Source: a phage. Taken from it: a DNA stretch of 64,000 nucleotides. Below are positions 1,269 to 14,380 of the stretch, piece after piece. The DNA lies in assembly GCA_024674815.1 (NCBI GenBank), contig GCA_024674815.1_4104.1, one strand, 5' to 3'. Both the position numbers and the translations under genes were made by a program. How positions within the stretch are numbered: position 1 is the stretch's first letter; each line of letters opens with the position of its first letter. The notes beneath the pieces are model-generated. The model saw nothing but the letters and a program-made list of their open reading frames with translations, had not been told where the DNA came from and did no database searches.

Positions 1269-1365
1269 GTACTTTTTAAAAATAGTTTTCAGTACTAGCC
1301 ACCAGCAAACAATAGATACATTTATGCACCCTGTGGGCTGATTTGTTTCTATGCGTATATAATAG

Positions 1366-1397
1366 CAAAGGGACTGACCGGAGTCAATCCCTTTTTC
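1366..1397 (-). terminator. hairpin terminator (family with UUCG-type loop)
   Basis: GGGAUUGAC-UCCG-GUCAGUCCC, fully paired only in minus transcript (G-U wobble); short T-run. Confidence 0.45.
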
Positions 1398-1405
1398 AAA
1401 TATTT

Positions 1406-1555
1406 TTAAACTTCTTTCGGGTTGCGATAGGTGATAGCGTTCGGGTACATTTGTTTAATGTTATTCCATGCCTGGTTAACATTATAACCACTTGAGCGAA
1501 TCAGTTGGTTACTACCGACACCTTGAAACACTACTTCGAATAAGAATTCTTTCAT
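1406..1555 (-). CDS. small hypothetical protein (49 aa)
   Basis: hand-translated ATG ORF below track threshold; start overlaps stop of upstream ORF. Confidence 0.35.
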   Translation of the reverse strand: MKEFLFEVVFQGVGSNQLIRSSGYNVNQAWNNIKQMYPNAITYRNPKEV

Positions 1556-1725
1556 GCTTTCACCTCGCTATCTGCTTTACCTTTACGCCAGGACATTACT
1601 AATTGTTCGCGTTGCCATAAGTCGAGTGATACAAAAAGTTTTGCGGTATCACTTTTAGGATACTCTCCAGTAGTACCTAACCGATAAAACAGATCTTTCA
1701 GTACTGATAATTCTACTTGAATCAT
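1552..1725 (-). CDS. small hypothetical protein (57 aa)
   Basis: hand-translated; ATGA overlap with downstream ORF. Confidence 0.35.
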   Translation of the reverse strand: MIQVELSVLKDLFYRLGTTGEYPKSDTAKLFVSLDLWQREQLVMSWRKGKADSEVKA

Positions 1726-1831
1726 TTTATTACTCCTGATTGCGTTAATACTTCTACTATTGCATGAATGATCATAAGTACAGCTAAAACAATAATCATC
1801 GGATTCATTTGCATAAGCTGTACTCCTTATA

Positions 1832-2044
1832 TTAATCTTTCAGCCAATGATCTTGAATGAATTTTTCACCGTATCCCTGTTTCATGGATTCTAACAGGCG
1901 TTCGCGGTGAGCGGCGGCATATTGCTCAGTACTATGCGTTACGCCAGGCTGATAACGTGATACCCCATCCGGTCCGATGTATTGTACATCCCACGGTTTA
2001 GCGTTAGTATCAGACCATTTACGAACGATTAGTTGACCTTGCAT
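1832..2044 (-). CDS. hypothetical protein (70 aa)
   Basis: ATG ORF; cassette upstream. Confidence 0.55.
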   Translation of the reverse strand: MQGQLIVRKWSDTNAKPWDVQYIGPDGVSRYQPGVTHSTEQYAAAHRERLLESMKQGYGEKFIQDHWLKD

Positions 2045-2061
2045 TTTTCTTTCCTCTCAGT

Positions 2062-2121
2062 GGGGAGAATCATTTCTCCCCTTCATGTAACTTATTATAC
2101 AGTACTAGATTATCTTGTCAA
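2062..2121 (-). promoter_or_regulatory. PeSL-like cassette
   Basis: TTGACA-16-TATAAT; hairpin GGGGAGAAAUGAUUCUCCCC. Confidence 0.6.
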
Positions 2122-2127
2122 TAGTTT

Positions 2128-2451
2128 TTATTCACCTTGTTTGAATTTAGTTTTCTCCATTGATTCCATGATTGCAACCAATACACCGTGGATCTCGCTT
2201 AACGCGGAATCACTAAAAGCATTAATGAATAGTCGATCATTCTCGCGAATATTTTTAATGTACTTTTCAGCAGTAGTTGCGAATTCATTCAACGGTAGAT
2301 CAAATGCTTTATCCCATGATGGATGGCGTAATTGTAACAGTACTGGATTATCACGATCACCAGGGGAAAACGTACCAGTGATGAAACATACGCCCGGAAT
2401 ACTTTCGAACTGGCAACGGACTTCCTTTGTGATAGTAGTATGAATGTACAT
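2128..2451 (-). CDS. hypothetical protein (107 aa)
   Basis: ATG ORF, 27 nt after upstream gene (co-transcribed). Confidence 0.55.
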   Translation of the reverse strand: MYIHTTITKEVRCQFESIPGVCFITGTFSPGDRDNPVLLQLRHPSWDKAFDLPLNEFATTAEKYIKNIRENDRLFINAFSDSALSEIHGVLVAIMESMEKTKFKQGE

Positions 2452-2478
2452 TTATTGTTATCCTCTATTAAATTAATA

Positions 2479-2673
2479 TTACAGTTTATGAATCAATTCT
2501 TTATCTAAGCGATAGCGTACATTATTAATAGTAACGGCATTGTTTTTAATGCTACGCTGTACAGGTCCACCAGCAATAACAAATGTTGCTTTATTACCCC
2601 GAACAATGATAGCACTTCCAGGATTACCGAAATCATCTTGTACTAAAATACTTGATAAGTTTTCCATTTTCAT
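2479..2673 (-). CDS. hypothetical protein (64 aa)
   Basis: ATG ORF; cassette upstream. Confidence 0.5.
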   Translation of the reverse strand: MKMENLSSILVQDDFGNPGSAIIVRGNKATFVIAGGPVQRSIKNNAVTINNVRYRLDKELIHKL

Positions 2674-2685
2674 TTCCTCTTAGTA

Positions 2686-2742
2686 GGGGAAGATGTTTCC
2701 CCTTGATGTAAGTACTATAACACTACTGAAAACTAAATGCAA
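2686..2742 (-). promoter_or_regulatory. PeSL-like cassette
   Basis: TTGCAT-16-TTATAG, hairpin GGGGAAACAUCUUCCCC. Confidence 0.5.
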
Positions 2743-2745
2743 GTA

Positions 2746-3102
2746 CTATGATAAAATCATGATAGGATATTCACTATCGATCAGTACCTCGAATCCGAAA
2801 CCTTCGTACCATTCTTTAAGATTAAAGGCGTTATCTTCTCCCGTATCGCATTCTAAAATGATACAATCTGAATCATCGGCGGCATCAATAAAGGCATTCA
2901 TTAATTCGTTACCTTCACCATTGCCCCGACTATCAGGATCAACATAAAGAGAATCAATAAACGCTACACGGTCATAATCAAGATCCGGTGCAATGATTCC
3001 ACGTTTCACAAACCAGTACTGCAATTGTGCTACTTTGCCCTGTACTTGATAGCCAGTGATCTCGCCATTGTCAGTAGTACGCGTGATATGTTGTATTCCC
3101 AT
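2746..3102 (-). CDS. GNAT-like acetyltransferase fold protein (118 aa)
   Basis: motif VDPDSRGNGEGNELM resembles GNAT motif A. Confidence 0.45.
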   Translation of the reverse strand: MGIQHITRTTDNGEITGYQVQGKVAQLQYWFVKRGIIAPDLDYDRVAFIDSLYVDPDSRGNGEGNELMNAFIDAADDSDCIILECDTGEDNAFNLKEWYEGFGFEVLIDSEYPIMILS

Positions 3103-3131
3103 GATTACTATCCTCAGTTAAGATATAAAAC

Positions 3132-3159
3132 ATTATACACTATCTTTCAGTACTGTCAA
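3132..3159 (-). promoter_or_regulatory. sigma70-type promoter
   Basis: TTGACA-16-TATAAT. Confidence 0.5.
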
Positions 3160-3165
3160 TACTTT

Positions 3166-3423
3166 TTATCTCATAGATCTATGCCAACAATTACGCGGAT
3201 CTCTTTTAAAAGTACTATCATGATCCTCCTGGCAAGTAATACAATACATGCACCCTATAACGGCCTGGCGTCGATTCTCAGGGATTTTATCGCCGCAGTC
3301 GAGGCAATGTACTAGTGATTCTCTTTGTGCGTTAATTTGCTTTCTAGCGTGGTTAACGGCTGCCTGAATCACTGCATGAATCTCGTCTTGTTCGGCCCCG
3401 TCTTTCGCGTATCCTACTGCCAT
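3166..3423 (-). CDS. TraR/DksA-family C4 zinc-finger protein (85 aa)
   Basis: CLDCG...x17...CMYCITCQ (CxxC-x17-CxxC). Confidence 0.6.
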   Translation of the reverse strand: MAVGYAKDGAEQDEIHAVIQAAVNHARKQINAQRESLVHCLDCGDKIPENRRQAVIGCMYCITCQEDHDSTFKRDPRNCWHRSMR

Positions 3424-3584
3424 TATTTTAACCTCATTATAAAAATACTATAGTACTGTAATGCTACAATAATACTACTAGTGCTAATCTTATTCAAACC
3501 ATATGATACTACATATCCACCAGCATTACCACGGATAGTAACTCCTTTGTACTGTCTATATAAATTCAACTGCGTATATTGCCT

Positions 3585-3657
3585 TTGATCAAGAATTGAT
3601 CAGAATTATACGCCTTATGCTAAATTGATCCAGTACTTTTTTGATCATTTATTGATC
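3585..3657. repeat. cluster of five TTGATC motifs (GATC-rich tract)
   Basis: 5 copies of TTGATC in 73 bp in an ORF-free leader. Confidence 0.5.
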
Positions 3658-3719
3658 GATATTATATAGTTACATTTGTGCACCCTATGGGTTAGTGACG
3701 TTCTCGTCTTGATGTAAGT

Positions 3720-3748
3720 ATTATGCCAGTACTGGATAATATTGTCAA
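3720..3748 (-). promoter_or_regulatory. sigma70-type promoter followed by conserved leader motif
   Basis: TTGACA-17-CATAAT; motif CACTAACCCAUAGGGUGC ~25 nt downstream. Confidence 0.5.
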
Positions 3749-3752
3749 TAGA

Positions 3753-3950
3753 TTATTTTAATTTTTTTCTGTCATTGATTAATGCTTTCAGTACTATACT
3801 AATAACTTGCAATGATTCATCAATGACAATGAAATTATTCTCTTTCATTAGATGATAGTTACCATTGATTGTATATTCTAACGAGTACTGTTTACGTTTA
3901 ATTTTTGATAATGTTTCTATTTGTTTTTGTACTGATTTCATGCTAATCAT
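3753..3950 (-). CDS. hypothetical protein (65 aa)
   Basis: track start is TTG; first ATG at 3950 used. Confidence 0.45.
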   Translation of the reverse strand: MISMKSVQKQIETLSKIKRKQYSLEYTINGNYHLMKENNFIVIDESLQVISIVLKALINDRKKLK

Positions 3951-4055
3951 TGTCAAACGTCCTGTAACGCATTCTAACGAGATAAACGGTTTAGTACTGG
4001 CATTGTATAGGGTAAATGATTAAAGCCCACCAGCGTTGACCAGTGGGCTATAATC

Positions 4056-4199
4056 TTACATCTTGCGGATAATCTTAACAGTATCTTTCACCGATTTACC
4101 GTCTTGCTGACATTGCTCGATCATCGCGTATTGTTCTGCGGTCAGATCCTCGCCAGTTTTTGCCAGTACTGCGTCGATGAATGAATCCAGTGCGATCAT
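4056..4199 (-). CDS. small hypothetical protein (47 aa)
   Basis: hand-translated ATG ORF; TTGACA-17-TATAAT promoter upstream. Confidence 0.35.
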   Translation of the reverse strand: MIALDSFIDAVLAKTGEDLTAEQYAMIEQCQQDGKSVKDTVKIIRKM

Positions 4200-4289
4200 T
4201 TTATTTCTCTCTTAGGTTAAGTTAACTACTGTTTATAAAACTTATTATACAGTACTATCAAACTATGTCAATAGTACTGGTAATATATT

Positions 4290-4469
4290 TTAGCGGTAGT
4301 CGTCGTATGCTTTATTCACCTGGCGAATATAACTTTCAAAGGCTTCGTCTACCGTTTCATACTCCCGAACATAATCACCATATGAAACTACATACATACC
4401 TTTTTGATCTTCAAACGTCATGATGATAGAATCCAGACCAACGATTTCAGTTTTTGCGATGATAGCCAT
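4290..4469 (-). CDS. small hypothetical protein (59 aa)
   Basis: hand-translated ATG ORF with upstream promoter. Confidence 0.4.
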   Translation of the reverse strand: MAIIAKTEIVGLDSIIMTFEDQKGMYVVSYGDYVREYETVDEAFESYIRQVNKAYDDYR

Positions 4470-4551
4470 TTTTAATTCCTTAATAGTGTAGTTGATAAAA
4501 GTTATTATGTCAGTACTATCAAACTATGTCAATAGTACTGTGATAATATTT

Positions 4552-4764
4552 TTAGTTAATGATAGTCAGTGTAAAATTGTAATCACCGCAGCGATATAGC
4601 ACGTTATTCCCAAATGTTCCAACTAATCGCACATCACACAAAACGCCGGTTTTTTCTTTTACTTCCTTGATACTTGTAACTCCTGTAATATCTTTATTAA
4701 AGTATTCATGATCTGAAAATAAAACTTGTTTTGCATTTTTTAATTTCGACCGGATATTAGCCAT
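4552..4764 (-). CDS. hypothetical protein (70 aa)
   Basis: ATG ORF; cassette upstream. Confidence 0.5.
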   Translation of the reverse strand: MANIRSKLKNAKQVLFSDHEYFNKDITGVTSIKEVKEKTGVLCDVRLVGTFGNNVLYRCGDYNFTLTIIN

Positions 4765-4784
4765 TTTGTTTTCTCTCTGTTAGT

Positions 4785-4844
4785 GGGGAGAATCATTTCT
4801 CCCCTTGATGTAAACTATTATACAGTACTATAATCTATTGTCAA
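4785..4844 (-). promoter_or_regulatory. PeSL-like cassette
   Basis: TTGACA-16-TATAAT; hairpin GGGGAGAAAUGAUUCUCCCC. Confidence 0.6.
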
Positions 4845-4859
4845 ACTATTTTTTTAATA

Positions 4860-5201
4860 TTATTCAAAATCTTCCGGTACTGACTGATAATCATCTTCAC
4901 CGTATGCACTTTCTAACCGCTCGCCAGTGTGATCATCAGTTAGTGAGTCATCCTCATAGTTCACGTCTACGCCAGTGATGTAAAACTGGCTATCGTCTGG
5001 ATCATTGAAATTAATTTTCTGTATGTTTACAATAACTGTATTGATACCCAGGACACTGCCATCAGCCGTTACAAAGTACTGATATTTTTCACAACCGCCT
5101 GAATTGAAACCGTAATTAATTTCGGCCCGACCATCATTTAAACGCAGTGCCTGGGCGATGATTTCATTTTCAAAGTTAGATTGAGCAATTGAGATAGTCA
5201 T
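4860..5201 (-). CDS. acidic hypothetical protein (113 aa)
   Basis: ATG ORF, D/E-rich. Confidence 0.55.
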   Translation of the reverse strand: MTISIAQSNFENEIIAQALRLNDGRAEINYGFNSGGCEKYQYFVTADGSVLGINTVIVNIQKINFNDPDDSQFYITGVDVNYEDDSLTDDHTGERLESAYGEDDYQSVPEDFE

Positions 5202-5221
5202 GATTTGTTTCCTTATTACCA

Positions 5222-5280
5222 GGGGAAACCGTTTCCCCTTTCGATGTAAAACATTATACGCTTATCAGGAAGTAATGCAA
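5222..5280 (-). promoter_or_regulatory. PeSL-like cassette
   Basis: TTGCAT-15-TATAAT; hairpin GGGGAAACGGUUUCCCC. Confidence 0.55.
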
Positions 5281-5283
5281 GTA

Positions 5284-5751
5284 CTATTTCACGTTAATTT
5301 CAAAGTACTGCTCTTTGATGTTTTCCTGTTGGTAAATCTCGTTTAATGCTTTAAGATCTAAAACCTGTTTACCTGCTGCCTGAATATACTTTTTAAGAGT
5401 CGCTAACAGCTTCTCAGGCGTGTTTGTAGTCTTACGTGTTGGGATCTTATCGTGCCCCATAGCGTAGTACTGCTTACGTGCTATAGTACTGATAACACTG
5501 CGGTACGGTTCCATGATCAGCTTGTCTGTGTATTCGTCGCTATCCCCAAACTTCATACCGTGGATCGCAAAGGTCATCATCATGCGGTCGTTATCGCGGA
5601 TATTGTGGGGGCAGTCGGCAAGCTCGCGAGTCAGTGACATAGTGATCCCCACGTCGCCACCCAGCGGTAAAGGTCGGGCGATAAAGAAACCGTTAGGGAA
5701 TACTTTCAGGAAGTTTTCTTGAACTGCTGCGACGAATTCGATGCTATTCAT
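5284..5751 (-). CDS. hypothetical protein (155 aa)
   Basis: ATG ORF. Confidence 0.6.
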   Translation of the reverse strand: MNSIEFVAAVQENFLKVFPNGFFIARPLPLGGDVGITMSLTRELADCPHNIRDNDRMMMTFAIHGMKFGDSDEYTDKLIMEPYRSVISTIARKQYYAMGHDKIPTRKTTNTPEKLLATLKKYIQAAGKQVLDLKALNEIYQQENIKEQYFEINVK

Positions 5752-5771
5752 AATTCATTTCCTTAATTAGT

Positions 5772-5831
5772 GGGGGAAGTTGTTTCCCCTCTCGATGTAA
5801 AACATTATACGCTTATTGAGATAGTTTGCAA
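5772..5831 (-). promoter_or_regulatory. PeSL-like cassette
   Basis: TTGCAA-16-TATAAT; hairpin. Confidence 0.55.
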
Positions 5832-5944
5832 GTACTTTCTACAAATACTTTTAAAATAGTTTTCAGTACTCAAACATTATACAATAGATACACTCCTGCA
5901 CCCTGTGGGCTAGTGAGCTATCTCTCAATGAATATATAATAGCA

Positions 5945-5975
5945 AACTGGCTGACCGAAGTCAACCACTTTTTCA
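5945..5975 (-). terminator. terminator hairpin with UUCG loop, TTGACT -35 embedded
   Basis: GGUUGAC-UUCG-GUCAGCC in minus transcript; TATTAT 17 nt downstream. Confidence 0.5.
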
Positions 5976-6110
5976 TTTATTTTTAGCTTTTAGAATCGCC
6001 GCCTTTCGCGTCATGCCTTGCTTGATGTACTCCTTTACTTTCGCTTTTTTAGCGTTTACCTTGTCTGCTTTCGTTTTAGGAGTACTGTAAATTATACCGT
6101 TAGGATTCAT
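5973..6110 (-). CDS. small basic protein (45 aa)
   Basis: hand-translated ATG ORF, Lys-rich. Confidence 0.3.
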   Translation of the reverse strand: MNPNGIIYSTPKTKADKVNAKKAKVKEYIKQGMTRKAAILKAKNK

Positions 6111-6196
6111 TTAAATCACCATAAAGAATAGATAGGTTACTAACAACGCCGCGATCAATGCACCGACCAGGGCCGAACTATAGTAAGCTAATGATT

Positions 6197-6349
6197 TCAT
6201 TTTTTAGCCTGAAAGTAATGTTTAATTTGAGCGGCGGTCAGTGCACAATTACGCAGGAAGTTTTCTGTATAACTTTTGCGAGTACTGAAAGAGAATTGAC
6301 CTTTGCCGTTACCGATAGTAACATCAAACCGAGCGTTGTATTGTTTCAT
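6197..6349 (-). CDS. small hypothetical protein (50 aa)
   Basis: ATG with AGGAGA SD; track start is an AUG inside the leader hairpin. Confidence 0.4.
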   Translation of the reverse strand: MKQYNARFDVTIGNGKGQFSFSTRKSYTENFLRNCALTAAQIKHYFQAKK

Positions 6350-6367
6350 TTTGATTCTCCTGTTATT

Positions 6368-6427
6368 GGGGAGAATCATTTCTCCCCTTCATGTAAACTA
6401 TTATACAGTACTAAAAACTAATTGCAA
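6368..6427 (-). promoter_or_regulatory. PeSL-like cassette
   Basis: TTGCAA-16-TATAAT; hairpin. Confidence 0.55.
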
Positions 6428-6430
6428 GTA

Positions 6431-6577
6431 TTATTTTTTAGATTTACGTAAACTTTCTACCATCTCAGGAGTAAGCCCCAGCGGGTAGGAAACCACTTCA
6501 TCCACAAAACGCAAAGGGAATACCCCATCTAAAGTTGAACGTGCTTTCTTATTAGTACTCTTTTTTGATGCTTTCAT
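6431..6577 (-). CDS. small hypothetical protein (48 aa)
   Basis: hand-translated ATG ORF; cassette upstream. Confidence 0.4.
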   Translation of the reverse strand: MKASKKSTNKKARSTLDGVFPLRFVDEVVSYPLGLTPEMVESLRKSKK

Positions 6578-6646
6578 TTCATATTCCTTAATTAGTGGGG
6601 AGAACTATTTCTCCACTTCATGTAAACTATTATACAGTACTAAAAA

Positions 6647-6856
6647 CTAATTGCAAGTATTATTTTCTAAAAAATGTTTGTATGCTGAATCAACAACTCT
6701 TTCGATAACATACGCTAACGGCACGTATCCAACTACATGACTACAATAAAAAGGACTACGATTAGAATCATCGTATGCAAATACTTTTTCAGGATCTGCA
6801 TCAATCACATACATATTAACCTTTAAGATGTCGATCTTATCCTGTACAGTAAGCAT
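6647..6856 (-). CDS. hypothetical protein (69 aa)
   Basis: ATG ORF. Confidence 0.5.
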   Translation of the reverse strand: MLTVQDKIDILKVNMYVIDADPEKVFAYDDSNRSPFYCSHVVGYVPLAYVIERVVDSAYKHFLENNTCN

Positions 6857-6861
6857 ATTAA

Positions 6862-7134
6862 TTAACCTTTTAAGTACTGGCTTAAGTAGTCTTTTTGATC
6901 TTCGGTGATTGCAGTCATCTTCCCTAGTACTGGATTAATGATATAATCCCCTGTAACGTCCAGTACAGCATTCTCAGGCTGTTTAACGGCAGGGGTAGCC
7001 ATAGCCATCGCCTGGACTTGTTCGACGCTGTAACGCTCATAAAGGCGGCATTCTTCCGGTGTTAACATAGCATCAATACGTTTCATTGGTTTAATGATGC
7101 TTTCAACTTCATTTAGTACTTGATTAACGTTCAT
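6862..7134 (-). CDS. hypothetical protein (90 aa)
   Basis: ATG ORF. Confidence 0.55.
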   Translation of the reverse strand: MNVNQVLNEVESIIKPMKRIDAMLTPEECRLYERYSVEQVQAMAMATPAVKQPENAVLDVTGDYIINPVLGKMTAITEDQKDYLSQYLKG

Positions 7135-7185
7135 GGTATAATCCCCAATATAAGCGGCCTAAATCGACCACTAACGATGATTTGA

Positions 7186-7455
7186 TCAATAGGTGTATGG
7201 TTGACGCTCAAACAATGATTGCACGTTGTACGCCCCGCTAATGGGCTTAGCTGGCAAATCAATTTTATATTGTTCACGCTTAAAGATAATAAAACGGCAA
7301 TTGTTTTTAACATCAAAATTGATTGAACGTTCCAGGAGTTTACCATCGTGCACAAATACAAGATAACCGCTTGCTACTTGTTTTGTAGTACTGGTTGCAA
7401 CCATAGACCGCCGAACATGTGTACCTGCATCGATTAAAGTACTGATATTTTTCAT
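7186..7455 (-). CDS. hypothetical protein (89 aa)
   Basis: ATG ORF; TTGACA-17-CATAAT promoter at ~7487-7515. Confidence 0.5.
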   Translation of the reverse strand: MKNISTLIDAGTHVRRSMVATSTTKQVASGYLVFVHDGKLLERSINFDVKNNCRFIIFKREQYKIDLPAKPISGAYNVQSLFERQPYTY

Positions 7456-7534
7456 TTTAGTTTCCTTAGTTGTCTTGATAAAATCTATTATGCCAGTACT
7501 ATCAAACTATGTCAATAGTACTGTGATAATATTT

Positions 7535-7678: not shown

Positions 7679-7695
7679 ATTAGTTTCCTTGTAGT

Positions 7696-7993: not shown

Positions 7994-8230
7994 TGTTTTG
8001 ATTCCTTTGATTTGGAAGGAGAACCGTTTCCCCCTCTCGATGTAAAACATTATACGCTAATCTCTTAATCGTGCAAGTACTTTTTATTACTTTTTGCAAA
8101 ATACTTTAAACGCTCTCAATCGCGTTCTTACAGCCTTAACGCCACCAGCTAGGGCAATGCATCAGATAATCAGTTTAATGCGTTAGAATCGTTTCTAGGC
8201 GGTGCTGGTGGCATGGTAAACTATAAACAC

Positions 8231-8256
8231 AAAAAAGCCCACCGTTTAAGGTGGGC
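8231..8256 (-). terminator. intrinsic terminator
   Basis: GCCCACC-uuaaac-GGUGGGC then U6 in minus transcript. Confidence 0.6.
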
Positions 8257-8278
8257 TAGTGATTCAATACTTTAATTG

Positions 8279-8761
8279 TTATGCTTCAACTTTGCGATGA
8301 GCTTCGATCCATTCCTCGCGAGTCATACCGCTTTCTTTGATAGCGTCCAGTACTACCGCAATGCAGTTACCGCGTACAGGAATCAAATGTTCTTCACCGT
8401 TATCAAGTACTACAGTAACACGTTCTTGAATCCATTTTTTAGGTTTAGATTCCGGCTTATCTTCACCGTACTTAACCGCCAGGGCTTTATGTGCCATTTC
8501 AACAACCACTTCCAGATCCAATCCAGACACCGCCGCCTGGATACTTTCAATTGTTGCTTGCAGTTCGGCTTCACGGGCTTTTTTCTGTTCTTCCAGTTCT
8601 GCTACCTTTTTGGCTTGTAATTCTTTCGCTTCACTGTAAGCAATGTTAAAATTGTTGCGTACAGCTTTCATGGTATCGTTATCCAGGTCAGCCAGCAATT
8701 CAGCAGCAATAACAGTATCGTTTGAAATCAGTGCTTTCAGGAATGATTTTACATTAGCCAT
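8279..8761 (-). CDS. hypothetical coiled-coil protein (160 aa)
   Basis: ATG with GAGGA SD; track start is TTG. Confidence 0.6.
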   Translation of the reverse strand: MANVKSFLKALISNDTVIAAELLADLDNDTMKAVRNNFNIAYSEAKELQAKKVAELEEQKKAREAELQATIESIQAAVSGLDLEVVVEMAHKALAVKYGEDKPESKPKKWIQERVTVVLDNGEEHLIPVRGNCIAVVLDAIKESGMTREEWIEAHRKVEA

Positions 8762-8956
8762 TTTATAAATCCTCAATTAAAGTTTAGTTTACGTTTATTA
8801 GTGTATCAAAGTTTTATCGACGTGTCCAGTTTTTCGTTCGACTTACTGGCGGTCTACTTAGTGCTCCCCGTCTTGATGTAATACATTCTACGCCTTTTTG
8901 TGGTAATGTCAACTACTTTTTTAAAACTATTTTTAAAGTATGCAGTACTACAAAAC

Positions 8957-8982
8957 AAAAAAGCCCACTGTTTAAGGTGGGC
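8957..8982 (-). terminator. intrinsic terminator (copy of 8231-8256)
   Basis: same hairpin + U-run. Confidence 0.6.
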
Positions 8983-9000
8983 TAGTGATTCAGTACTATA

Positions 9001-9300
9001 TTATAAACAGTTAATTACTCCGGTGTGCGTTACTTTCTCAGTATCCATAACCGTGACCGATCCACGCTTAGTACTTGCATCATAATAAATTGTTGTGCTA
9101 CCGTTTTCGTCTTCTTCATGGAACGGCCCGTTTTTAAATGCTTCTGGCTGGATCTCTAAATCCTTTAAAACAATCTCGCCTGTACTTTCATTGGTCATCG
9201 CTACCGTGCACTGAATGAATTTTTCACTACTTACATCTAACGACGCATTAACAGCGAAAGAGGAAACAGATAAAGCCAGGGCGATGATTGCAATTTTCAT
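9001..9300 (-). CDS. secreted/periplasmic small protein (99 aa)
   Basis: N-terminal signal-peptide-like MKIAIIALALSVSSFA. Confidence 0.6.
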   Translation of the reverse strand: MKIAIIALALSVSSFAVNASLDVSSEKFIQCTVAMTNESTGEIVLKDLEIQPEAFKNGPFHEEDENGSTTIYYDASTKRGSVTVMDTEKVTHTGVINCL

Positions 9301-9320
9301 TTGATTATCCTTAGTTACCA

Positions 9321-9379
9321 GGGGAAACCGTTTCCCCTTGCGATGTAAAATATTATACAGTACTAAAAACTAATTGCAA
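9321..9379 (-). promoter_or_regulatory. PeSL-like cassette
   Basis: TTGCAA-16-TATAAT; hairpin. Confidence 0.55.
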
Positions 9380-9384
9380 GTACT

Positions 9385-9621
9385 TTATGATTTTTTATAA
9401 AACATTTCGGCAGTGATATTTTTACCCGTTGGTTGTACTTTATCCAGAATTTTTTGATGCCCTGGCCGTCCAAATGAATATGATCCGTAAACCGTAAACC
9501 AGTAGTTACCCTCAGTGTTTACATGTACAGCACAATAGGGAACGCCCCGCGATTCATCACCAATAAAGTGTGATACCGTTCCCGTTACATTAGCAGACGT
9601 TGATTTGATTTGTTCAAGCAT
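9385..9621 (-). CDS. hypothetical protein (78 aa)
   Basis: ATG ORF; cassette 9643-9694. Confidence 0.5.
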   Translation of the reverse strand: MLEQIKSTSANVTGTVSHFIGDESRGVPYCAVHVNTEGNYWFTVYGSYSFGRPGHQKILDKVQPTGKNITAEMFYKKS

Positions 9622-9728
9622 TTTCTTATTCCTTAGTTACCAGGGGAACCGCTCCCCTATGCAAAACATTATACGCGTTTAAAAACTATTAGCAAGTATT
9701 TTAATAAAAAGTATTTGAAAAATAGTTG

Positions 9729-9757
9729 TTGACAAGTGCATCCAGTACTGGCATAAT
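9729..9757 (+). promoter_or_regulatory. plus-strand sigma70-type promoter
   Basis: TTGACA-17-CATAAT on plus strand, no ORF downstream. Confidence 0.5.
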
Positions 9758-9763
9758 TACTAC

Positions 9764-9868
9764 ATCAAGACGAAACAGTCACTAACCCACCGGGTGCCGA
9801 GATCCGTCTATTAAATGATTCAGTACTGAAAAAGTAACGGGGAGTTATTATCTCCCCGCGTTGTTATT
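9764..9868 (+). ncRNA. candidate ~100-nt small RNA
   Basis: promoter 9729-9757, conserved CACUAACCCACCGGGUGC motif, hairpin+U-run terminator 9838-9870. Confidence 0.3.
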
Positions 9869-10085
9869 TGGTAAGGTATAAACAGAAGTCACCTTTATTT
9901 GCTACGCCGCCAGTGTAACGCGATGAATAGTTAGAAATATCTTGTACTTCTGCTATTACCAGTGTATCATCATTCATTTCGTCGCAGAAGCAAACGGCTG
10001 GATCTTTTACGCCGATATTGTCTGCATGTTCCCGCATAGATTTAACCAGTGCTTCCAGTTGAGAAAGAGTAGTGATATTAGCCAT
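9864..10085 (-). CDS. hypothetical protein (73 aa)
   Basis: ATG with GAGGA SD; cassette 10105-10163. Confidence 0.5.
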   Translation of the reverse strand: MANITTLSQLEALVKSMREHADNIGVKDPAVCFCDEMNDDTLVIAEVQDISNYSSRYTGGVANKGDFCLYLTK

Positions 10086-10169
10086 TTTATTTTCCTCATT
10101 ACCAGGGAGAACCATTTCTCCCCTTGATGTAAACTATTATACAGTACTAAAAACTAATTGCAAGTACTT

Positions 10170-10358
10170 TTAATTAAATTCCATAAAATCATTTTCAACG
10201 TGCACAACAATCTGATTATTTTTAAAGGACGCAGAAAACTCTATACAATCATAAACCGCTTTTTCTGTTACCAGACTATGAGCACCAATCGGATTAATTG
10301 GGGATTGAATTGTTTCAATCTCGTTACCTTGTTCATTAACGATTAAAATATTAAACAT
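10170..10358 (-). CDS. hypothetical protein (62 aa)
   Basis: ATG ORF. Confidence 0.45.
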   Translation of the reverse strand: MFNILIVNEQGNEIETIQSPINPIGAHSLVTEKAVYDCIEFSASFKNNQIVVHVENDFMEFN

Positions 10359-10397
10359 TGCCGTTACTCCTGGATAGTGTTAACTCGATATAAAGTA

Positions 10398-10580
10398 TTA
10401 TACGCCTTTATTGCTTAGTGTCCAGTGATCACGCATCATACGCCCCGCACGATCCCAGCTAGTAGGCATGGGTATGCCTTGCAATTCGTTAGGGGAGATC
10501 TCGACCTCGATCCCTACATCAATAACAGTCATTCCAGCTTTCGCAGCTTGCTCGCGGATAACCTCAGATAATGTTGTCAT
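10398..10580 (-). CDS. hypothetical protein (60 aa)
   Basis: ATG ORF. Confidence 0.45.
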   Translation of the reverse strand: MTTLSEVIREQAAKAGMTVIDVGIEVEISPNELQGIPMPTSWDRAGRMMRDHWTLSNKGV

Positions 10581-10654
10581 GATTAAAGCTCCTGGATAGT
10601 GTTAACTCGATATAAAGTATTATACAGTACTGAAAACTAATTGCAAGTACTTTT

Positions 10655-10915
10655 TCAATATTGTTTGTCGTTGTCTTCCTCGATGAATTGACCGACGAAA
10701 TGATCTACTTTCGCTTTGAGGCTTTTATAATCTTCTTCTACTTCCTTTAAACGTTCCTGGTAGTATTCCAGGGCTTGAATATACGCCGCCTCAGCAGTTT
10801 TTGCACGCATAGCTAAATTCATTCCACGCGTTTCATCAAATAGCCAATAACCATCGGTGCAATGACTGATAGATAATGATTTACTTAGTACTGTATAGGC
10901 AATTACTTTACTCAT
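10655..10915 (-). CDS. hypothetical protein (86 aa)
   Basis: ATG ORF. Confidence 0.5.
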   Translation of the reverse strand: MSKVIAYTVLSKSLSISHCTDGYWLFDETRGMNLAMRAKTAEAAYIQALEYYQERLKEVEEDYKSLKAKVDHFVGQFIEEDNDKQY

Positions 10916-10972
10916 TAGATAACCCTCAGTAAAGGCGGGAACTATTACCCGCCATTATCTCAGTACTGAATA

Positions 10973-11212
10973 TTACATTCCAACCATTGCAGCACGGATC
11001 GCAGTAGTGCTATACTTAAAGCCGTCCGGCGTTGTAGTAGTACCGTTGGCTTTTAATCTGCGGTACATACATTCCGCAGCAATATCTTTAGTTCTACTTT
11101 GTGCGATGCAACTTTGAGCAAGCCGATACAATGACTCACCGTTATTAATCCAAAGGCTTACATTCCAATGAGTTTTGTTTTTGTGTCCGTTGTAAGTTTT
11201 AGTACTAGCCAT
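10973..11212 (-). CDS. hypothetical protein, paralog A of 13014-13253 (79 aa)
   Basis: shared GHKNKTHWNVSLWINN and TPDGFKYSTTAIRAAMVGM termini. Confidence 0.55.
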   Translation of the reverse strand: MASTKTYNGHKNKTHWNVSLWINNGESLYRLAQSCIAQSRTKDIAAECMYRRLKANGTTTTPDGFKYSTTAIRAAMVGM

Positions 11213-11230
11213 TTTTAAATCCTCGTTTGA

Positions 11231-11290
11231 GCGGGGAACCACTCCCCGCCTCGATATAAAGTATTATACGCTTTTAAACTTAGTTTGCAA
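11231..11290 (-). promoter_or_regulatory. PeSL-like cassette
   Basis: TTGCAA-16-TATAAT; hairpin GCGGGGAGUGGUUCCCCGC. Confidence 0.55.
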
Positions 11291-11302
11291 GTACTTTTTA
11301 AA

Positions 11303-11914
11303 TTAATATTCGATTGATTCCACTACTCCATCAATAACATTGAATTGATATTCGTTACCCTCAATCAGTGCTGTAATGTTTTCAGTAGTGAATTGATCCT
11401 CATATGCATTCTCTAAATCACGGTACAACTTGCGGGATAATTCACGAATAGTTTCAGTGAGTAGTTCCTCAAGCTCATTAACTAACGTTTCTTGTTTTGC
11501 GGTTAAATCAGTGTAAGCCGATTCAATGTACCCGCTTACAGTATTCTCATGCGAGTAGTGGGAGTGCGAACGCTTTACACTCATCGCCAAATCATCTTCA
11601 TTCAGCAAGTGACGGATTGAGCGATACTTAGTTAATGCTCTTACCTTGCGTAAAAACTTCACTGCGTCAACGTGGTCAGTACTGATTGATGCACCGTCAC
11701 CCTGGGACCAAAAGCCACTGAATCGTAAATCAGCGTCAGTAATGCCATATTCCGGTAGTACTGTTTCTTTATAGTATTCAATTTCACTTTCAGAAAAATA
11801 ATCATCGTTTAAGTTTTTTTCACGTTCCCGAACCAGTTCGATAGCTGACGTTTGTTGTTCTGCGTTCAATTCAGAAAAAGCCATAACATAAGTAGTAGTA
11901 GTGATAGTTTTCAT
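11303..11914 (-). CDS. acidic hypothetical protein (203 aa)
   Basis: ATG ORF, D/E-rich. Confidence 0.6.
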   Translation of the reverse strand: MKTITTTTYVMAFSELNAEQQTSAIELVREREKNLNDDYFSESEIEYYKETVLPEYGITDADLRFSGFWSQGDGASISTDHVDAVKFLRKVRALTKYRSIRHLLNEDDLAMSVKRSHSHYSHENTVSGYIESAYTDLTAKQETLVNELEELLTETIRELSRKLYRDLENAYEDQFTTENITALIEGNEYQFNVIDGVVESIEY

Positions 11915-11984
11915 TTTGTAACCCTCATTCAGTAGTTGATGTAAGTATTATACGCTTTTAAAAACAATTGTCAAACTATTTTAT

Positions 11985-12060
11985 CAGGGGAGTTTTTCGT
12001 GTGCCTTACTCCTGGGCTACTTAATGGGGAGTTACTTATTTCGTTCCCCGTCCTGATGTA
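11985..12060 (-). other. conserved structured leader element (copy 3)
   Basis: near-identical to 1163-1234. Confidence 0.4.
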
Positions 12061-12139
12061 AAACATTATACGCCTTTAAACATAGTTTGCAAGTACTTTT
12101 TAAAAATAGTTTTCTGTACTGAATAGTAAAAAAAAAGTA

Positions 12140-12168
12140 TTGACAGCATTATCAAGTACTGGCATAAT
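12140..12168 (+). promoter_or_regulatory. plus-strand sigma70-type promoter
   Basis: TTGACA-17-CATAAT; conserved motif downstream. Confidence 0.5.
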
Positions 12169-12283
12169 ATACCCCATGACAACAGCTAACCCACCGGGTG
12201 CACAATTGTAACTGTAATAAACTACTTTTTCTATAGATACACTCCCGCACCCTATGGGCTACGGCTTATCTGCCAATGAATAC

Positions 12284-12312
12284 ATTATGCCAGTACTGAC
12301 AAAATAAGTCAA
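12284..12312 (-). promoter_or_regulatory. minus-strand promoter convergent with 12140-12168
   Basis: TTGACT-17-CATAAT; conserved motif downstream. Confidence 0.5.
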
Positions 12313-12342
12313 TACCGGCAATTGTAAAGATTTGTAAACTGC

Positions 12343-12573
12343 TTATACTGCAATCGCGTCCAGGCTGTAATAATAATAAGTGCCGTATTGGTGTACTTTA
12401 TTACCTTTTATTTCAGTACTGAATGAATCCGAACGGTTTGCATATGATGTTAATTTAAAGTACTTTGATTTGCTGATACGTTGCCATACACCACAGATCC
12501 GCTGTAAGTAAGTAGTTTTATTCGTGGTAGTATCTTTTACGGTTTTAACTTCAGTCATATACATATTAGTCAT
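12343..12573 (-). CDS. hypothetical protein (76 aa)
   Basis: ATG ORF; cassette 12595-12653. Confidence 0.5.
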   Translation of the reverse strand: MTNMYMTEVKTVKDTTTNKTTYLQRICGVWQRISKSKYFKLTSYANRSDSFSTEIKGNKVHQYGTYYYYSLDAIAV

Positions 12574-12660
12574 TTTTATTACTCCAGGTTATAGGCGGGA
12601 AGAGTTCCCGCTCTCGATGTAAAACATTATACGCCTTTAAACATAGTTTGCAAGTACTTT

Positions 12661-12927
12661 TTATTCAAGTACTGCAATCTTTTTAGTACGGTACACGGTC
12701 ACGCGGTTGCCCTTTCGGTCGAGCTTTATTTCTACCACTCGACGCGATACACTATCGGGACTTTTTAAGGCCGCTAACCAGTACTGTAATGATCTGGCGG
12801 TACTACGCTTTACAATGGCCCAACGTTTACCACGTTCCGATTGTACGCCCATATCTTTAAACGTTGCCCCGTCCTGGCGAGCGGCGATCCGAGCTTGTTC
12901 ACGCGTCGCAAAATACTTAATATTCAT
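12661..12927 (-). CDS. basic hypothetical protein (88 aa)
   Basis: internal ATG; track start is GTG in promoter. Confidence 0.45.
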   Translation of the reverse strand: MNIKYFATREQARIAARQDGATFKDMGVQSERGKRWAIVKRSTARSLQYWLAALKSPDSVSRRVVEIKLDRKGNRVTVYRTKKIAVLE

Positions 12928-13013
12928 GCTGTTGCCCTTATCGTTGGTGTATGAATAAAACACTATTATAAAGTACTATCGCAAAAAAATGATAGTACTT
13001 TAAATAAATTCTA

Positions 13014-13253
13014 TTACATTCCAACCATCGCCGCACGGATCGCAGTAGTGCTATATTTGAATCCGTCCGGTGTTTTATCTTGTCCAGTCTGTTCTAAAAA
13101 TAACATCATATGACGGGCCGCATCATTGCGATTAGTGCTATCGTTAATAAAGTCCTGGGCCAACCGGTATAATGATTCATCGTTATTAATCCAAAGGCTT
13201 ACATTCCAATGAGTTTTGTTTTTGTGACCTAAGAACATTTTTGATTTAGCCAT
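13014..13253 (-). CDS. hypothetical protein, paralog B of 10973-11212 (79 aa)
   Basis: conserved termini, variable middle; cassette 13273-13330. Confidence 0.55.
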   Translation of the reverse strand: MAKSKMFLGHKNKTHWNVSLWINNDESLYRLAQDFINDSTNRNDAARHMMLFLEQTGQDKTPDGFKYSTTAIRAAMVGM

Positions 13254-13345
13254 TTTTTAATCCTCTTATATAGTGGGGAACTATTCCCCACCTGATGTAA
13301 AACATTATACGCTTTTAAACTTAGTTTGCAAGTACTTTATTAAAC

Positions 13346-13708
13346 TTATTTGTAAATTTTGCCACTGTCAGCCCATACCAGGAAACGAGGCATATTATCC
13401 CATGCATCTTGTTTTAAGTTTAAGCCGTGCAATTCCTCAGTTGTTGCCATCCCTGGTACTGGCTTACTACACACCGCGAAATTTTCGCCCATGTACTGAT
13501 AAACCATCGTTAAATCATTTGAGATCATTACATGGATCATTGAATCAAGCATCAAAGTAGCGGCGTATTGTTCACGCTTAAGCGGCAACATTGCAATAAG
13601 TTCCCGATAAGCTGCAATGTGAATTTTTACAGTTTCAGCCGGAAGACCTTTCATCTCATCGCGGAAGTTTACCAGGTTAAGCATGATTTTATTGATTTGA
13701 GTCGCCAT
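13346..13708 (-). CDS. hypothetical protein (120 aa)
   Basis: internal ATG after cassette hairpin 13733-13749. Confidence 0.55.
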   Translation of the reverse strand: MATQINKIMLNLVNFRDEMKGLPAETVKIHIAAYRELIAMLPLKREQYAATLMLDSMIHVMISNDLTMVYQYMGENFAVCSKPVPGMATTEELHGLNLKQDAWDNMPRFLVWADSGKIYK

Positions 13709-13823
13709 CGTTTTAATCTCTCTTAATGTGTAGCGGGAAGTGTTCCCGCTCTCGATGTAAAACATTATACGCTTTTATCAGTACGGTGCAAGTACTTTCT
13801 ACAAATACTTTTAAAATAGTTTT

Positions 13824-13919
13824 CTTTCTATATAGGAGTACTATTATTCAGTACTGAATCAATCCAGGGGAACTATCTTTCTATATAGGAGTACTATTAT
13901 TCAGTACTGAATCAATCCA
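13824..13919. repeat. 2 x 43-bp direct repeat
   Basis: unit TCTTTCTATATAGGAGTACTATTATTCAGTACTGAATCAATCCA twice, 53-bp period. Confidence 0.6.
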
Positions 13920-14071
13920 CCAAATCACTACTACACCCCATAAAACGGCCTCAGACGCATTCTAACGCATTAATACACATAAGCTATACATTTGCACCAT
14001 TCCAATCATTCCAGGGCTTTACAGGCCGTTTAAACGCGTTAAATTATTTTCAATTATTTTGTTTTTAGGTA

Positions 14072-14099
14072 TTGACTTGATCCTGAAAAAGCGTATAAT
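14072..14099 (+). promoter_or_regulatory. plus-strand sigma70-type promoter
   Basis: TTGACT-16-TATAAT. Confidence 0.5.
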
Positions 14100-14103
14100 T
14101 ACT

Positions 14104-14165
14104 ACATAGACGCGAGAAAGCGGAAACCCCAGAGGGTGCGGAATTACGCCCAAAATTCAAGATAT
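14104..14165 (+). ncRNA. candidate small RNA A
   Basis: own promoter; shares GAGAAAG..GGGUGC..UUACGCCCAAAAUUCA with 14318-14380. Confidence 0.3.
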
Positions 14166-14287
14166 AAAAAAAGGATACACTCCCGCACCCTAGCAGGTAA
14201 ACGCACTTTCTCAGTACTGAAATATAGTACCATAGTCCGGCCCAGGATAGCAAGCAAATTAATTAAAACTTTTTTGCTTCCAGGGTA

Positions 14288-14315
14288 TTGCTTTATTTTT
14301 TCAGTACTGTATAAT
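14288..14315 (+). promoter_or_regulatory. plus-strand promoter
   Basis: TTGCTT-16-TATAAT. Confidence 0.45.
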
Positions 14316-14317
14316 AG

Positions 14318-14380
14318 TTCCATCAAGTCGAGAAAGACTCAAGCCCACCGGGTGCATAGTTACGCCCAAAATTCAGTACT
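14318..14380 (+). ncRNA. candidate small RNA B (paralog of A)
   Basis: conserved sequence blocks with 14104-14165. Confidence 0.3.

Follow-up and report, generated by a model that had tools for sequence, protein, structure and literature searches.

We analyzed a 64,000-nucleotide (nt) stretch of phage DNA (contig GCA_024674815.1_4104.1 of GenBank assembly GCA_024674815.1), referred to throughout as the window, in which an initial annotation had noted at least nine copies of a conserved ~35-nt motif downstream of promoters that appeared to drive no open reading frame (ORF). Judging from sequence comparison, the element is a structured RNA and not a DNA site. A hairpin at its 5′ end, P1, covaries across 96 distinct copies, and this indicates that the element acts as RNA. 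Support for the RNA level also comes from a second helix that depends on G-U pairs, since only the RNA of the transcribed strand can form these. We favor a reading in which each unit would be an independent gene for a multicopy, immediate-early, structured non-coding small RNA working in trans, with a conserved protein as its probable binding partner; in our estimate, this reading has about an even chance of being correct.

The motif and its copies in the window

All nine copies proved to be present where they had been placed or right beside, in both orientations. GGGTGC starts at 1331, 3685, 5903, 12252 and 14190 on the minus strand and at 9792, 12196, 14134 and 14350 on the plus strand (copies are referred to below as 1331-, 9792+ and so on). 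The expectation that the motif would be enriched relative to shuffled sequence was borne out: the core CCCAYNGGGTGC, with at most one mismatch, has nine matches against 0.49 expected, and none of 100 shuffles equaled this number. Eight of these nine matches are copies of the element, and the ninth copy, 14190-, carries CCTGCTAGGGTGC.

The conserved core can be written as R-CCC-N3-4-GGGUGC-N5-YNYRYCY, which departs in part from the first description of the motif. The 5′ part, given as CACTA(A/G)CCCA, did not hold up as a conserved block, since on its own it is not enriched (CACTARCCCA, 10 matches against 5.4 expected) and only R-CCC is conserved. At the 3′ side a conserved box does exist, but it is not always TGTATCTAT; the actual consensus is YNYRYCY, realized as UGUAUCU, CCGUCU or ACGCCC. 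Likewise, the motif is indeed promoter-proximal, but instead of lying 20-25 nt downstream of the promoter it begins ~20-34 nt after the predicted transcription start, with GGGTGC 26-41 nt after the -10 hexamer. Two exact CACTARCCCA matches (8252 and 8978) are the 5′ arms of ordinary terminator hairpins at 8236-8257 and 8962-8983 on the minus strand. These terminators have the form AGCCCACC-loop-GGTGGGCT followed by a T run and start with CACTAGCCCAC, as do some of the RNA cores; the shared start may hint at a common origin of the RNA core and the two terminator hairpins.

To collect further copies we used a covariance model seeded with ten copies, namely seven from other phages and three rows padded by one A in the linker; MAFFT alone misaligned P1. 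Two of the three padded rows are window copies (5903- and 14350+), and padded rows were excluded from the analyzed alignments. On the 64-kb window the model returned exactly the nine copies, with E-values from 5e-12 to 4e-3; the next match had E = 0.95, and no copy was detected between 16 and 64 kb. Overall, the model identified 114 copies, 96 of them distinct, in 26 stretches.

Evidence for RNA structure

P1 is located between the predicted transcription start and the motif, beginning at about +3, and was first seen when the copies were placed side by side, unaligned. Its stems include AGACA/UGUCU, AGCA/UGCU, UCCA/UGGA, GGAG/CUCC, GACG/CGUC, AGUC/GACU, GGC/GCC and ACCG/CGGU, and the loop consensus is G-N-R-A-A-A, with AGAACA(A) and AGAUAA as variants. 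Covariance and structure analysis across copies had been proposed as a check, and P1 does covary strongly. In the model alignment, each of its four core pairs shows four to five standard pair types, both sides are changed in 31-42 of the 96 distinct sequences, and few are unpaired. For the structure as a whole, 85.8% of cells are paired, compared to 30-52% with slid partners, and none of 500 shuffles reaches the observed covariation score. A mutual-information scan singles out the four P1 pairs only and detected no further long-range or pseudoknot pairs. RNAalifold predicts P1 unaided. A minority of copies, such as 1331- and 12196+, have only an A-rich leader and no P1.

According to column counts, the sequence after P1 reads U-W-A-R, CCC, A-Y-A, GGGUGC, R-G-A-R-N, U-N-U/C-A/G-U/C-C-U/C, A-U. 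Within it, GGGU can pair backwards with RCCC (helix A) or, as GGGUGCR, forwards with YGUAUCU (helix B). Because formation of one helix precludes the other, the element may have two states. Helix A is nearly invariant and 94% paired; its closing C-G pair is replaced by U-A in two independent copies (L013:4523 and L025:4086) and by U-G in seven. Pairing at the five core positions of helix B reaches 92-100%; variation is confined to the 3′ strand and consists exclusively of transitions that preserve pairing (GU 69/GC 20, GC 85/GU 8, GU 79/GC 9, UA 72/UG 24 and GU 78/GC 17), while a sixth pair changes from C-G to G-C in two copies. The support for helices A and B thus consists mainly of one-sided changes plus two double changes each. 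Folding energy prefers helix A in 50 of 61 sequences and helix B in the other 11. We dropped a long hairpin between the 5′ region and the 3′ box that looked attractive in single-sequence folds, as its true partners scored -3.58 kcal/mol against -3.37 +/- 0.18 kcal/mol for permuted ones (p ~ 0.13).

Taken together, the covarying hairpin at +3, the G-U-dependent second helix and the fixed orientation of the motif relative to its promoter agree with the proposal that the copies are short non-coding leaders or small RNAs. The same three properties make the alternative that had been offered, a promoter-proximal protein-binding DNA site, unlikely. Between free small RNAs and leaders, the orientation-independent placement of the units and the terminators that some of them possess favor the former, at least for a part of the family.

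Promoters and placement within the terminal repeat

As first described, each window copy is preceded by a good sigma-70-type promoter, which matches 8-11 of the 12 hexamer positions, has a 16-18-bp spacer and, in seven of nine cases, an extended -10 TG. Among 71 distinct copies extracted by pattern, the -35 hexamer matches the consensus in at least five of six positions in 57, the -10 hexamer in at least four of six in all, and the spacer is 17 bp long in 52. The predicted +1, taken 7 nt after the -10 hexamer, is A in 59 of the 71 and is preceded by C at -1 in 55. Here, promoters are consensus matches, and transcription starts, RNA ends and expression are predictions. The observation that no ORF is driven also stands: no credible ORF follows any copy before a terminator, another promoter or a facing copy, and no start codon or ORF is conserved across copies.

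The first 15,000 positions of the window are 90-96% identical to Escherichia coli jumbo phages of the 121Q/PBECO4/G17 group (Asteriusvirus), with JP4 as the best match. The left physical genome end corresponds to window position ~15,430, as query position 15,000 aligns with position 436 of the record of fEgEco12, the ends being determined in such records. The direct terminal repeat of fEgEco12 is 20,993 bp long, as confirmed by restriction mapping (PMC13070987). It follows that the region 1,324-14,360 lies inside the terminal repeat and is read in reverse. The genes of the repeat region are on the minus strand of the window and small; most have their own sigma-70-type promoter, often with a 5′ hairpin. 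All 11 copies of fEgEco12 are inside the 20,993-bp repeat, the 79 kb beyond it having none. The same is true of Klebsiella phage Muenster, whose 10 copies are all inside the annotated repeat (1-20,030), with none at 20-45 kb, and the window has no copies in the 48 kb beyond the repeat boundary. These scans covered 0-100 kb of fEgEco12, Muenster up to 45 kb and the 64-kb window.

Within the repeat, copies are found at the boundaries of transcription blocks, in either orientation. About 35% of them are antisense to all neighboring genes (4/9 in the window, 4/11 in fEgEco12 and 3/10 in Muenster, convergent copies included), and antisense copies end at bidirectional or annotated terminators (9838-9858 in the window; 4951-4978 and 11927-11953 in Muenster). 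Terminators of their own accompany 9792+ (9838-9858), 14190- (helix B plus T7), the antisense copies of Muenster and, in a crude scan, ~8 of 62 copies. An intrinsic terminator in which the hairpin itself is directly followed by a U run is formed only by 14190- (14191-14172 plus T7) and by a few copies in relatives; normally, helix B is followed by AUWR. Of the eight strong same-strand terminators in the fEgEco12 repeat, four have a loop that contains the -35 hexamer of a sense unit, and an antisense unit shares a fifth; the window counterparts of the first arrangement are 1394-1367 and 5967-5948. A unit whose -35 is buried in the terminator of the preceding block would therefore be insulated from upstream transcription and have a fixed 5′ end. 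There are two convergent pairs in the window, 12196+/12252- and 14134+/14190-, and the same fixed geometry recurs in six related loci, with the ends of the two 54-nt models one base apart and the predicted starts ~100 bp apart. P1, the restriction to the terminal repeat, the convergent pairs and the conservation across the RaK2-like clade described below were not part of the initial annotation.

In several relatives (L002, L045, L055, L014, L041, L013 and L015), LexA-box-like palindromes (TACTGTACAAATAAACAG and TACTGTACATAAAAACAGTA) lie between some RNA units and terminators; no LexA boxes were found within the window.

The nine units of the window

Unit 1 (1331-; 1304-1387, minus strand) has the promoter TTGACT-17-TATTAT (1387-1359) with an extended -10 and a predicted start at ~1352. 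A short A-rich leader without P1 precedes the core and the 3′ box, which together occupy 1344-1304. The -35 hexamer lies within the terminator hairpin 1394-1367, and the unit is followed by a Chi site (1299-1306) and then the next promoter. Unit 2 (3685-; 3658-3748, minus strand) is preceded by TTGACA-17-CATAAT (3748-3720), with a predicted start at ~3713. It combines the P1 stem GAC/GUC (or GACG/CGUC) with the core CACUAACCCAUAGGGUGC and the 3′ box UGUAACU, and downstream of it are ~140 nt with no convincing gene. Unit 3 (5903-; 5876-5964, minus strand) has the promoter TTGACT-17-TATTAT (5964-5936) and a predicted start at ~5929, followed by the P1 stem UGAG/CUCA, the core and the 3′ box. Its -35 is within the terminator hairpin 5967-5948, and a gene promoter (5831-5804) lies downstream.

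Unit 4 (9792+; 9729-9868, plus strand) is antisense to the genes. Its promoter TTGACA-17-CATAAT (9729-9757) has a predicted start at ~9764 and is followed by the P1 stem GAC/GUC, the core, the 3′ box CCGUCU, the sequence AGUACUG and the bidirectional terminator 9838-9858. This makes it a full promoter-to-terminator unit of ~100 nt without an ORF.

Units 5 and 6 form the first convergent pair. Unit 5 (12196+; 12140-12223), the plus-strand half, has its promoter at 12140-12168, a predicted start at ~12175 and a short leader with no P1. Unit 6 (12252-; 12225-12312), the minus-strand half, has the promoter TTGACT-17-CATAAT (12312-12284), a predicted start at ~12277 and a P1 with the stem UGGC/GCCG and the loop AGAUAA; only 1 nt separates its model end from unit 5. 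The second pair consists of units 7 and 8. On the plus strand, unit 7 (14134+; 14072-14161) has the promoter TTGACT-16-TATAAT (14072-14099), a predicted start at ~14106, the P1 stem CGC/GCG with the loop GAGAAA, the 3′ box ACGCCC and the tail CCAAAAUUCA. Facing it on the minus strand, unit 8 (14190-; 14163-14253) is the most divergent copy (covariance-model E = 0.004), with the promoter TTGCTA-18-TACTAT (14253-14224) and a predicted start at ~14217. In this unit helix B (14191-14172) passes directly into T7 and resembles an intrinsic terminator, giving a predicted RNA of ~55 nt.

Unit 9 (14350+; 14288-14377, plus strand) has the promoter TTGCTT-16-TATAAT (14288-14315), a predicted start at ~14322, the P1 stem AGUC/GACU with the loop GAGAAA, the 3′ box ACGCCC and the tail CCAAAAUUCAGUACUG. 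It aims at the physical genome end ~1 kb away and is followed by an AT-rich palindrome and then another promoter.

The window also contains a second promoter-driven non-coding family of ~90 nt, with members at 1153-1235, 8790-8885 and 11975-12064, all on the minus strand. Two copies of this family are flanked by an RNA unit on one side and the next gene promoter on the other, and its internal hairpin covaries (GUC/GAC, GCC/GGC and GAC/GUC).

Distribution and absence from known catalogues

A pattern scan of IMG/VR gave multi-copy matches in nine contigs of 345,809-378,379 bp, whereas single matches in unrelated contigs are attributable to chance, except for four fragments of related phages. BLAST with one unit retrieved 52 phage records (Escherichia, Klebsiella, Salmonella and Erwinia). 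Among the BLAST matches listed, the unit is unannotated or lies under a 'hypothetical protein' or a terminator feature, and mostly nothing is annotated. The search of related phages that had been suggested thus located copies in all RaK2-like jumbo phages examined, namely those of E. coli and Klebsiella and of Cronobacter-, Pectobacterium- and Yersinia-type, with conservation in at least six lineages. CCC and GGGUGC are kept in nearly all 96 distinct copies, although no more than 33-38% of proteins are common to these phages. Between close relatives, orthologous units have exchanged their 5′ leaders; for example, the unit corresponding to 12252- has a different leader in L017+856.

We found no description of the motif in the literature searched. 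Rfam 15 gave no match at gathering score in the window and nothing at the units at E <= 10, and ARAGORN detected no transfer RNA (tRNA) or transfer-messenger RNA (tmRNA) genes in the window. In bacteria, the pattern CCCAYAGGGTGCNNNNNTGTATCTAT has no matches in 185,579 species genomes, and the whole unit has no match in 5,426 complete E. coli genomes; on these grounds, host mimicry or host origin was rejected.

Comparison with known systems

The put RNAs of phage HK022 are phage early-region RNAs that lie immediately after a strong promoter, are synthesized by host polymerase and require no protein-coding capacity (PMC9378689). The present units resemble them in form only, as put comprises ~60-70 nt with two stem-loops and a unit ~57 nt with P1 and helix A or B. 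They differ in having 10-11 copies instead of two, in being antisense or convergent in one third of cases and in always beginning at the transcription start. Homology in sequence or structure was not found (E = 1.3), and action in cis via the β′ zinc-binding domain is a feature of put.

The nearest precedent comes from PA5oct, a Pseudomonas jumbo phage and distant relative, in which ncRNA001 and ncRNA002 are expressed from the terminal repeat at a high level from early infection, each making up 2-5% of phage reads (PMC7318152). The common property is that non-coding RNAs are encoded in a long direct terminal repeat; unlike our units, the PA5oct RNAs are 236 and 451 nt long and single-copy. The covariance model detected no similarity in the PA5oct stretch covering both RNAs, so that the precedent is functional and not homologous.

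Among bacterial small RNAs, the sibling families Qrr1-5 and LhrC1-5 consist of paralogous genes with their own promoters, a conserved core, variable flanks and a C-rich segment between hairpins. All of these properties are shared by the phage units. The units differ from Qrr1-5 and LhrC1-5 in being phage-encoded, in reaching ~20 copies per genome, in being confined to the terminal repeat and in often lacking a terminator. RNAs of the 6S and CsrB type are abundant structured molecules that sequester proteins via a conserved binding element. Here the likeness lies in the proposed mode of action, through a putative protein-binding element. The units have no 6S-like open-promoter bubble, carry GGA loops only in a subset of copies, are many short genes in place of one multi-site RNA and have no Rfam match. 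Finally, Arbiol et al. (2010) reportedly described T4-type PeSL cassettes as repeated intergenic combinations of an early sigma-70 promoter and a stem-loop in a hyperplastic region of small genes. It is the ordinary gene cassettes of the window that resemble PeSL; the RNA units differ from PeSL in their additional invariant core, second helix, lack of a driven ORF, occurrence in both orientations and compensatory evolution.

Several other candidates were considered and judged not to fit. The boxA of lambda N/nut (CGCTCTTTA-like) can be searched as YGCTCTTWA, which has two matches in the window, a chance level, and none near a unit. A ToxI-like element of a type III toxin-antitoxin system does not fit copies that are dispersed over 13 kb with their own promoters and do not form tandem ~35-nt repeats in one transcript; we know of no similarity to ToxI, as compared by eye. 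An operator or other dyad DNA site fits poorly with the P1 stems that vary between copies, the G-U pairs in helix B and the fixed orientation. A mimic of CRISPR repeats was dropped after comparison by eye with type I-E and I-F repeats as known to us, since the shared letters are at non-conserved positions and the stem differs. Similar comparisons with tmRNA PK1, Spot 42, helix 45 of 16S ribosomal RNA, RNase P RNA and CsrA sites gave agreement at non-conserved positions or in subsets of copies only. We therefore file the element as a new RNA family within a known kind, that of phage-encoded small structured RNAs, unusual in its high copy number, its restriction to the terminal repeat and its fixed convergent pairs.

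Other features of the repeat and its surroundings

Gene architecture changes sharply at the repeat boundary, as can be seen by comparing window positions 1-13,770 with 15,709-20,512 (both minus strand) or positions 1-20,993 of fEgEco12 with those from 21,091 onwards. Inside the repeat, most of the small genes have their own consensus promoter (20 kb contain 12 perfect matches, 12/12), and 5′ hairpins such as GGGGAGAAnnnnTTCTCCCC are found in many of them. Outside the repeat, the genes form long operons with overlaps, and promoter-like sites are no more frequent than expected by chance. The 1.9 kb between 13,770 and 15,700 contain no genes and adjoin the physical genome end. They are a candidate origin or packaging region. 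A direct repeat of 46 bp occupies 13821-13866 and 13878-13923, ccgtttagccgtctagcc recurs in iteron-like fashion at 14540-14640, and there are several promoters, some pointing outward and some inward. Further on, at 20,597-34,692 (plus strand), there are ~12 tandem paralogous ORFs of 245-418 amino acids, most of them 369-418. The first and the ninth share 30% identity (E = 5e-18), and the repeated G-x-N-x-x-G-x-L-G-like motifs in these sequences look like RCC1-type propeller blades.

Chi sites (GCTGGTGG) are strongly enriched in the window, with 15 sites against 0.69 expected: eight at 1299, 2567, 3517, 4027, 8142, 8204, 14839 and 14851, and seven more beyond 20 kb. The first 50 kb of fEgEco12 have 12 sites against 0.43 expected, all of them inside the terminal repeat (578-19632) and 10 on one strand, in an orientation that would suit recognition by RecBCD on entry from the right end. 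An inverted pair is located ~580 bp from the left end (window 14839-14858), and in relatives several Chi sites lie in the promoter spacers of RNA units. The enrichment probably reflects protection of the ends against RecBCD.

The palindrome AGTACT is the commonest hexamer of the window, with 267 occurrences against ~22 expected from base composition, and CAGTACTG occurs 56 times. It is placed in promoter spacers just upstream of the -10 hexamer (e.g., 9743-9750 and 12154-12159), fused to the -35 hexamer (TTGCAAGTACT), ~10-20 nt after RNA units and at gene ends; further examples are at 9824-9831 and 14372-14379. Such placements also occur in RaK2-, GAP32- and CBB-type loci, and AGTACT may be an operator or a modification site.

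A proposed trans-acting small RNA and its alternatives

If the units are genes for a trans-acting RNA, host sigma-70 RNA polymerase would initiate at a very strong promoter with a consensus -35, a 17-bp spacer, often an extended -10 and an A-rich upstream region. The RNA would start with A and from about +3 form P1, with 4-5 bp and a GNRAAA, AGAACA or AGAUAA loop. After a short U-W-A-R linker, the invariant CCC-AYA-GGGUGC would fold in one of two exclusive ways: as helix A (RCCC/GGGU) or as helix B, in which GGGUGCR would pair with the 3′ box YGUAUCU through alternating G-U and Watson-Crick pairs around a GNRA-like loop. The predicted product is a compact RNA of ~55-60 nt, or ~100 nt where a terminator is present, with a hairpin that would protect each end. 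Having 9-11 copies per ~20-kb repeat, a packaged genome would carry ~20. This number, together with the individually promoted early-type genes of the repeat, suggests that synthesis of the RNA would be immediate and abundant. A conserved host or phage protein would recognize the invariant core, and the RNA may serve as a decoy, a sponge or a cofactor; base-pairing via the exposed UARCCCAYA appears to be a less likely mode of action in trans. A protein partner is suggested by the conservation pattern: a stem that is free to vary as long as it is paired, combined with 3-nt and 6-nt blocks that are nearly invariant across five host genera, points to a protein common to the hosts or phages rather than to a variable target. 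Thus, in this reading we infer transcription itself, the RNA ends, abundance, action in trans and the protein partner. RNA-level selection, a fixed 5′ end, insulation, orientation independent of neighbors, promoters among the strongest matches of the region and ~20 copies make a family of trans-acting small RNAs the simplest account. A more specific scenario, that of a new class of host-takeover RNA, is possible, if doubtful: the ~20 promoter copies in the repeats, assumed to be among the first DNA to enter, might flood the cell with the ~57-nt RNA, and its switch might capture a core host factor (RNA polymerase, Hfq, RNase E or the ribosome) or reprogram RNA polymerase without a phage protein, in a put-like manner that evolved independently.

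Several observations weigh against a trans-acting RNA. In about half of the copies, the next promoter follows 30-65 nt downstream with no intervening terminator, so that their transcripts would run into the next gene unless processed. Complementary target sites are not enriched in the phage outside the units, a Pfam scan of the ten largest repeat-region proteins detected no RNA-binding domain, and GGA, ARN and further known protein-binding motifs are limited to subsets of copies. The starts, ends and abundance of the RNA are predictions. In addition, the analyzed alignments come from a model that contains P1 and are therefore biased towards it, yet P1 was first spotted in unaligned sequences.

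The main rival, which we judge unlikely, is a cis-acting, put-like RNA: the nascent two-hairpin transcript would bind its own elongating polymerase, which would then resist pausing and termination and cross the block-ending terminators. The promoter-proximal, fixed position agrees with this idea, as do sense copies that head transcription blocks every 2-3 kb along the repeat and two hairpins within ~57 nt, near the ~70 nt and two stem-loops of put just downstream of PL (PMC9378689). Weak support also comes from a -10-like TATWRT just past the structure, a possible site of a sigma-dependent pause such as that proposed for putL (PMC9378689), although only a minority of copies possess it (17 of 61 when at least five of six positions have to match; 17-25 of 61 as a range). 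However, the ~35% of copies that are antisense to all genes or face another copy have the wrong orientation to serve terminators or genes downstream, the only element downstream of some copies is a terminator, past which there is nothing to express, and the terminators preceding units would be pointless for polymerases that ignore terminators. Moreover, the adjacent operon is served by a promoter of its own at 21033 and lacks internal terminators as far as 33581, which weakens the need for read-through out of the repeat, and the HK022 early region with putL and putR (22.0-40.7 kb) shows no similarity in sequence or structure, with E = 1.3 for the best match. A put-like role is therefore attractive for the sense copies, but leaves the antisense, convergent and self-terminated copies unexplained. 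The last three classes also have no downstream messenger RNA, which makes it improbable that the element is a 5′ leader acting post-transcriptionally, as a stabilizer or processing site, on the message that follows. Such a role would suit the roughly half of copies that reach the next gene's promoter within 30-65 nt with no terminator between. A hairpin at +3 is a classical protection against 5′-end-dependent decay involving RNase E, ordinary early genes of the region likewise start with a 5′ hairpin, and many helix B loops carry a Shine-Dalgarno-like GGAG or GGAGG. Nevertheless, the GGAG loop is not universal, every downstream gene already has its own promoter and 5′ hairpin, and stabilization would not account for the invariant CCC...GGGUGC core.

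The remaining explanations place the function elsewhere or dispense with it. A signal at the DNA level, either an operator for a promoter regulator or a programmed pause site at about +50, might draw on the small dyad CCC-N3-GGG and on a need to shut the promoters off after the early phase. The elemental pause consensus is G(-11)G(-10)...Y(-1)G(+1), which GGGTGC-N5-TG fits in about half of the copies, but G occupies the putative +1 in only 34 of 61. This possibility seems to us very improbable: P1 stems that differ between copies yet stay complementary fit no single DNA-binding specificity, helix B uses G-U pairs that only one strand's RNA can form, the flanking sequences lack symmetry and orientation to the promoter is strictly fixed. 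Nearly as remote is a role like that at T4-type origins, in which the transcripts would be primers or R-loops for replication of the repeat, its recombination or the processing of its ends, and convergent pairs would be bidirectional starts. It would be in keeping with the confinement of all copies to the repeat, three of them within 1.3 kb of the physical end beside the iteron-like repeats, with the fixed geometry of the pairs, with the T4-like replication genes of these phages and with the co-enrichment of Chi sites. Yet at least 10 origins per 20 kb are implausible, most copies are single, and selection for an intramolecular fold such as P1 is ill-suited to an RNA that stays hybridized to DNA. 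Finally, the units could be selfish or neutral promoter cassettes that are spread by recombination, like the T4-type promoter/stem-loop cassettes, and have no function. The region is indeed a mosaic of promoter/stem-loop cassettes, and leader swapping, as in the 12252- unit, is what such spread would produce. Even so, compensatory evolution of P1 across genera, the retention of GGGUGC and CCC despite so few shared proteins, and several subfamilies conserved across genera leave this explanation hardly any room.

Implications

RaK2-like jumbo phages (Asteriusvirus, Alcyoneusvirus and relatives) are under development for therapy, while ~80% of their genes have no known function. Their terminal repeats are otherwise hypervariable, and no feature of the repeats is more conserved than the family described here, which is missing from Rfam, from the genome annotations examined and from the literature searched; some records annotate spurious 'hypothetical proteins' over it. 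As a minimal outcome, ~10 unannotated RNA genes per repeat are to be added to these genomes. If the RNA does act as a decoy or polymerase modifier, it would represent a new RNA-based mechanism of host takeover and, consisting of a consensus promoter and a 57-nt RNA, would provide a compact and portable tool.

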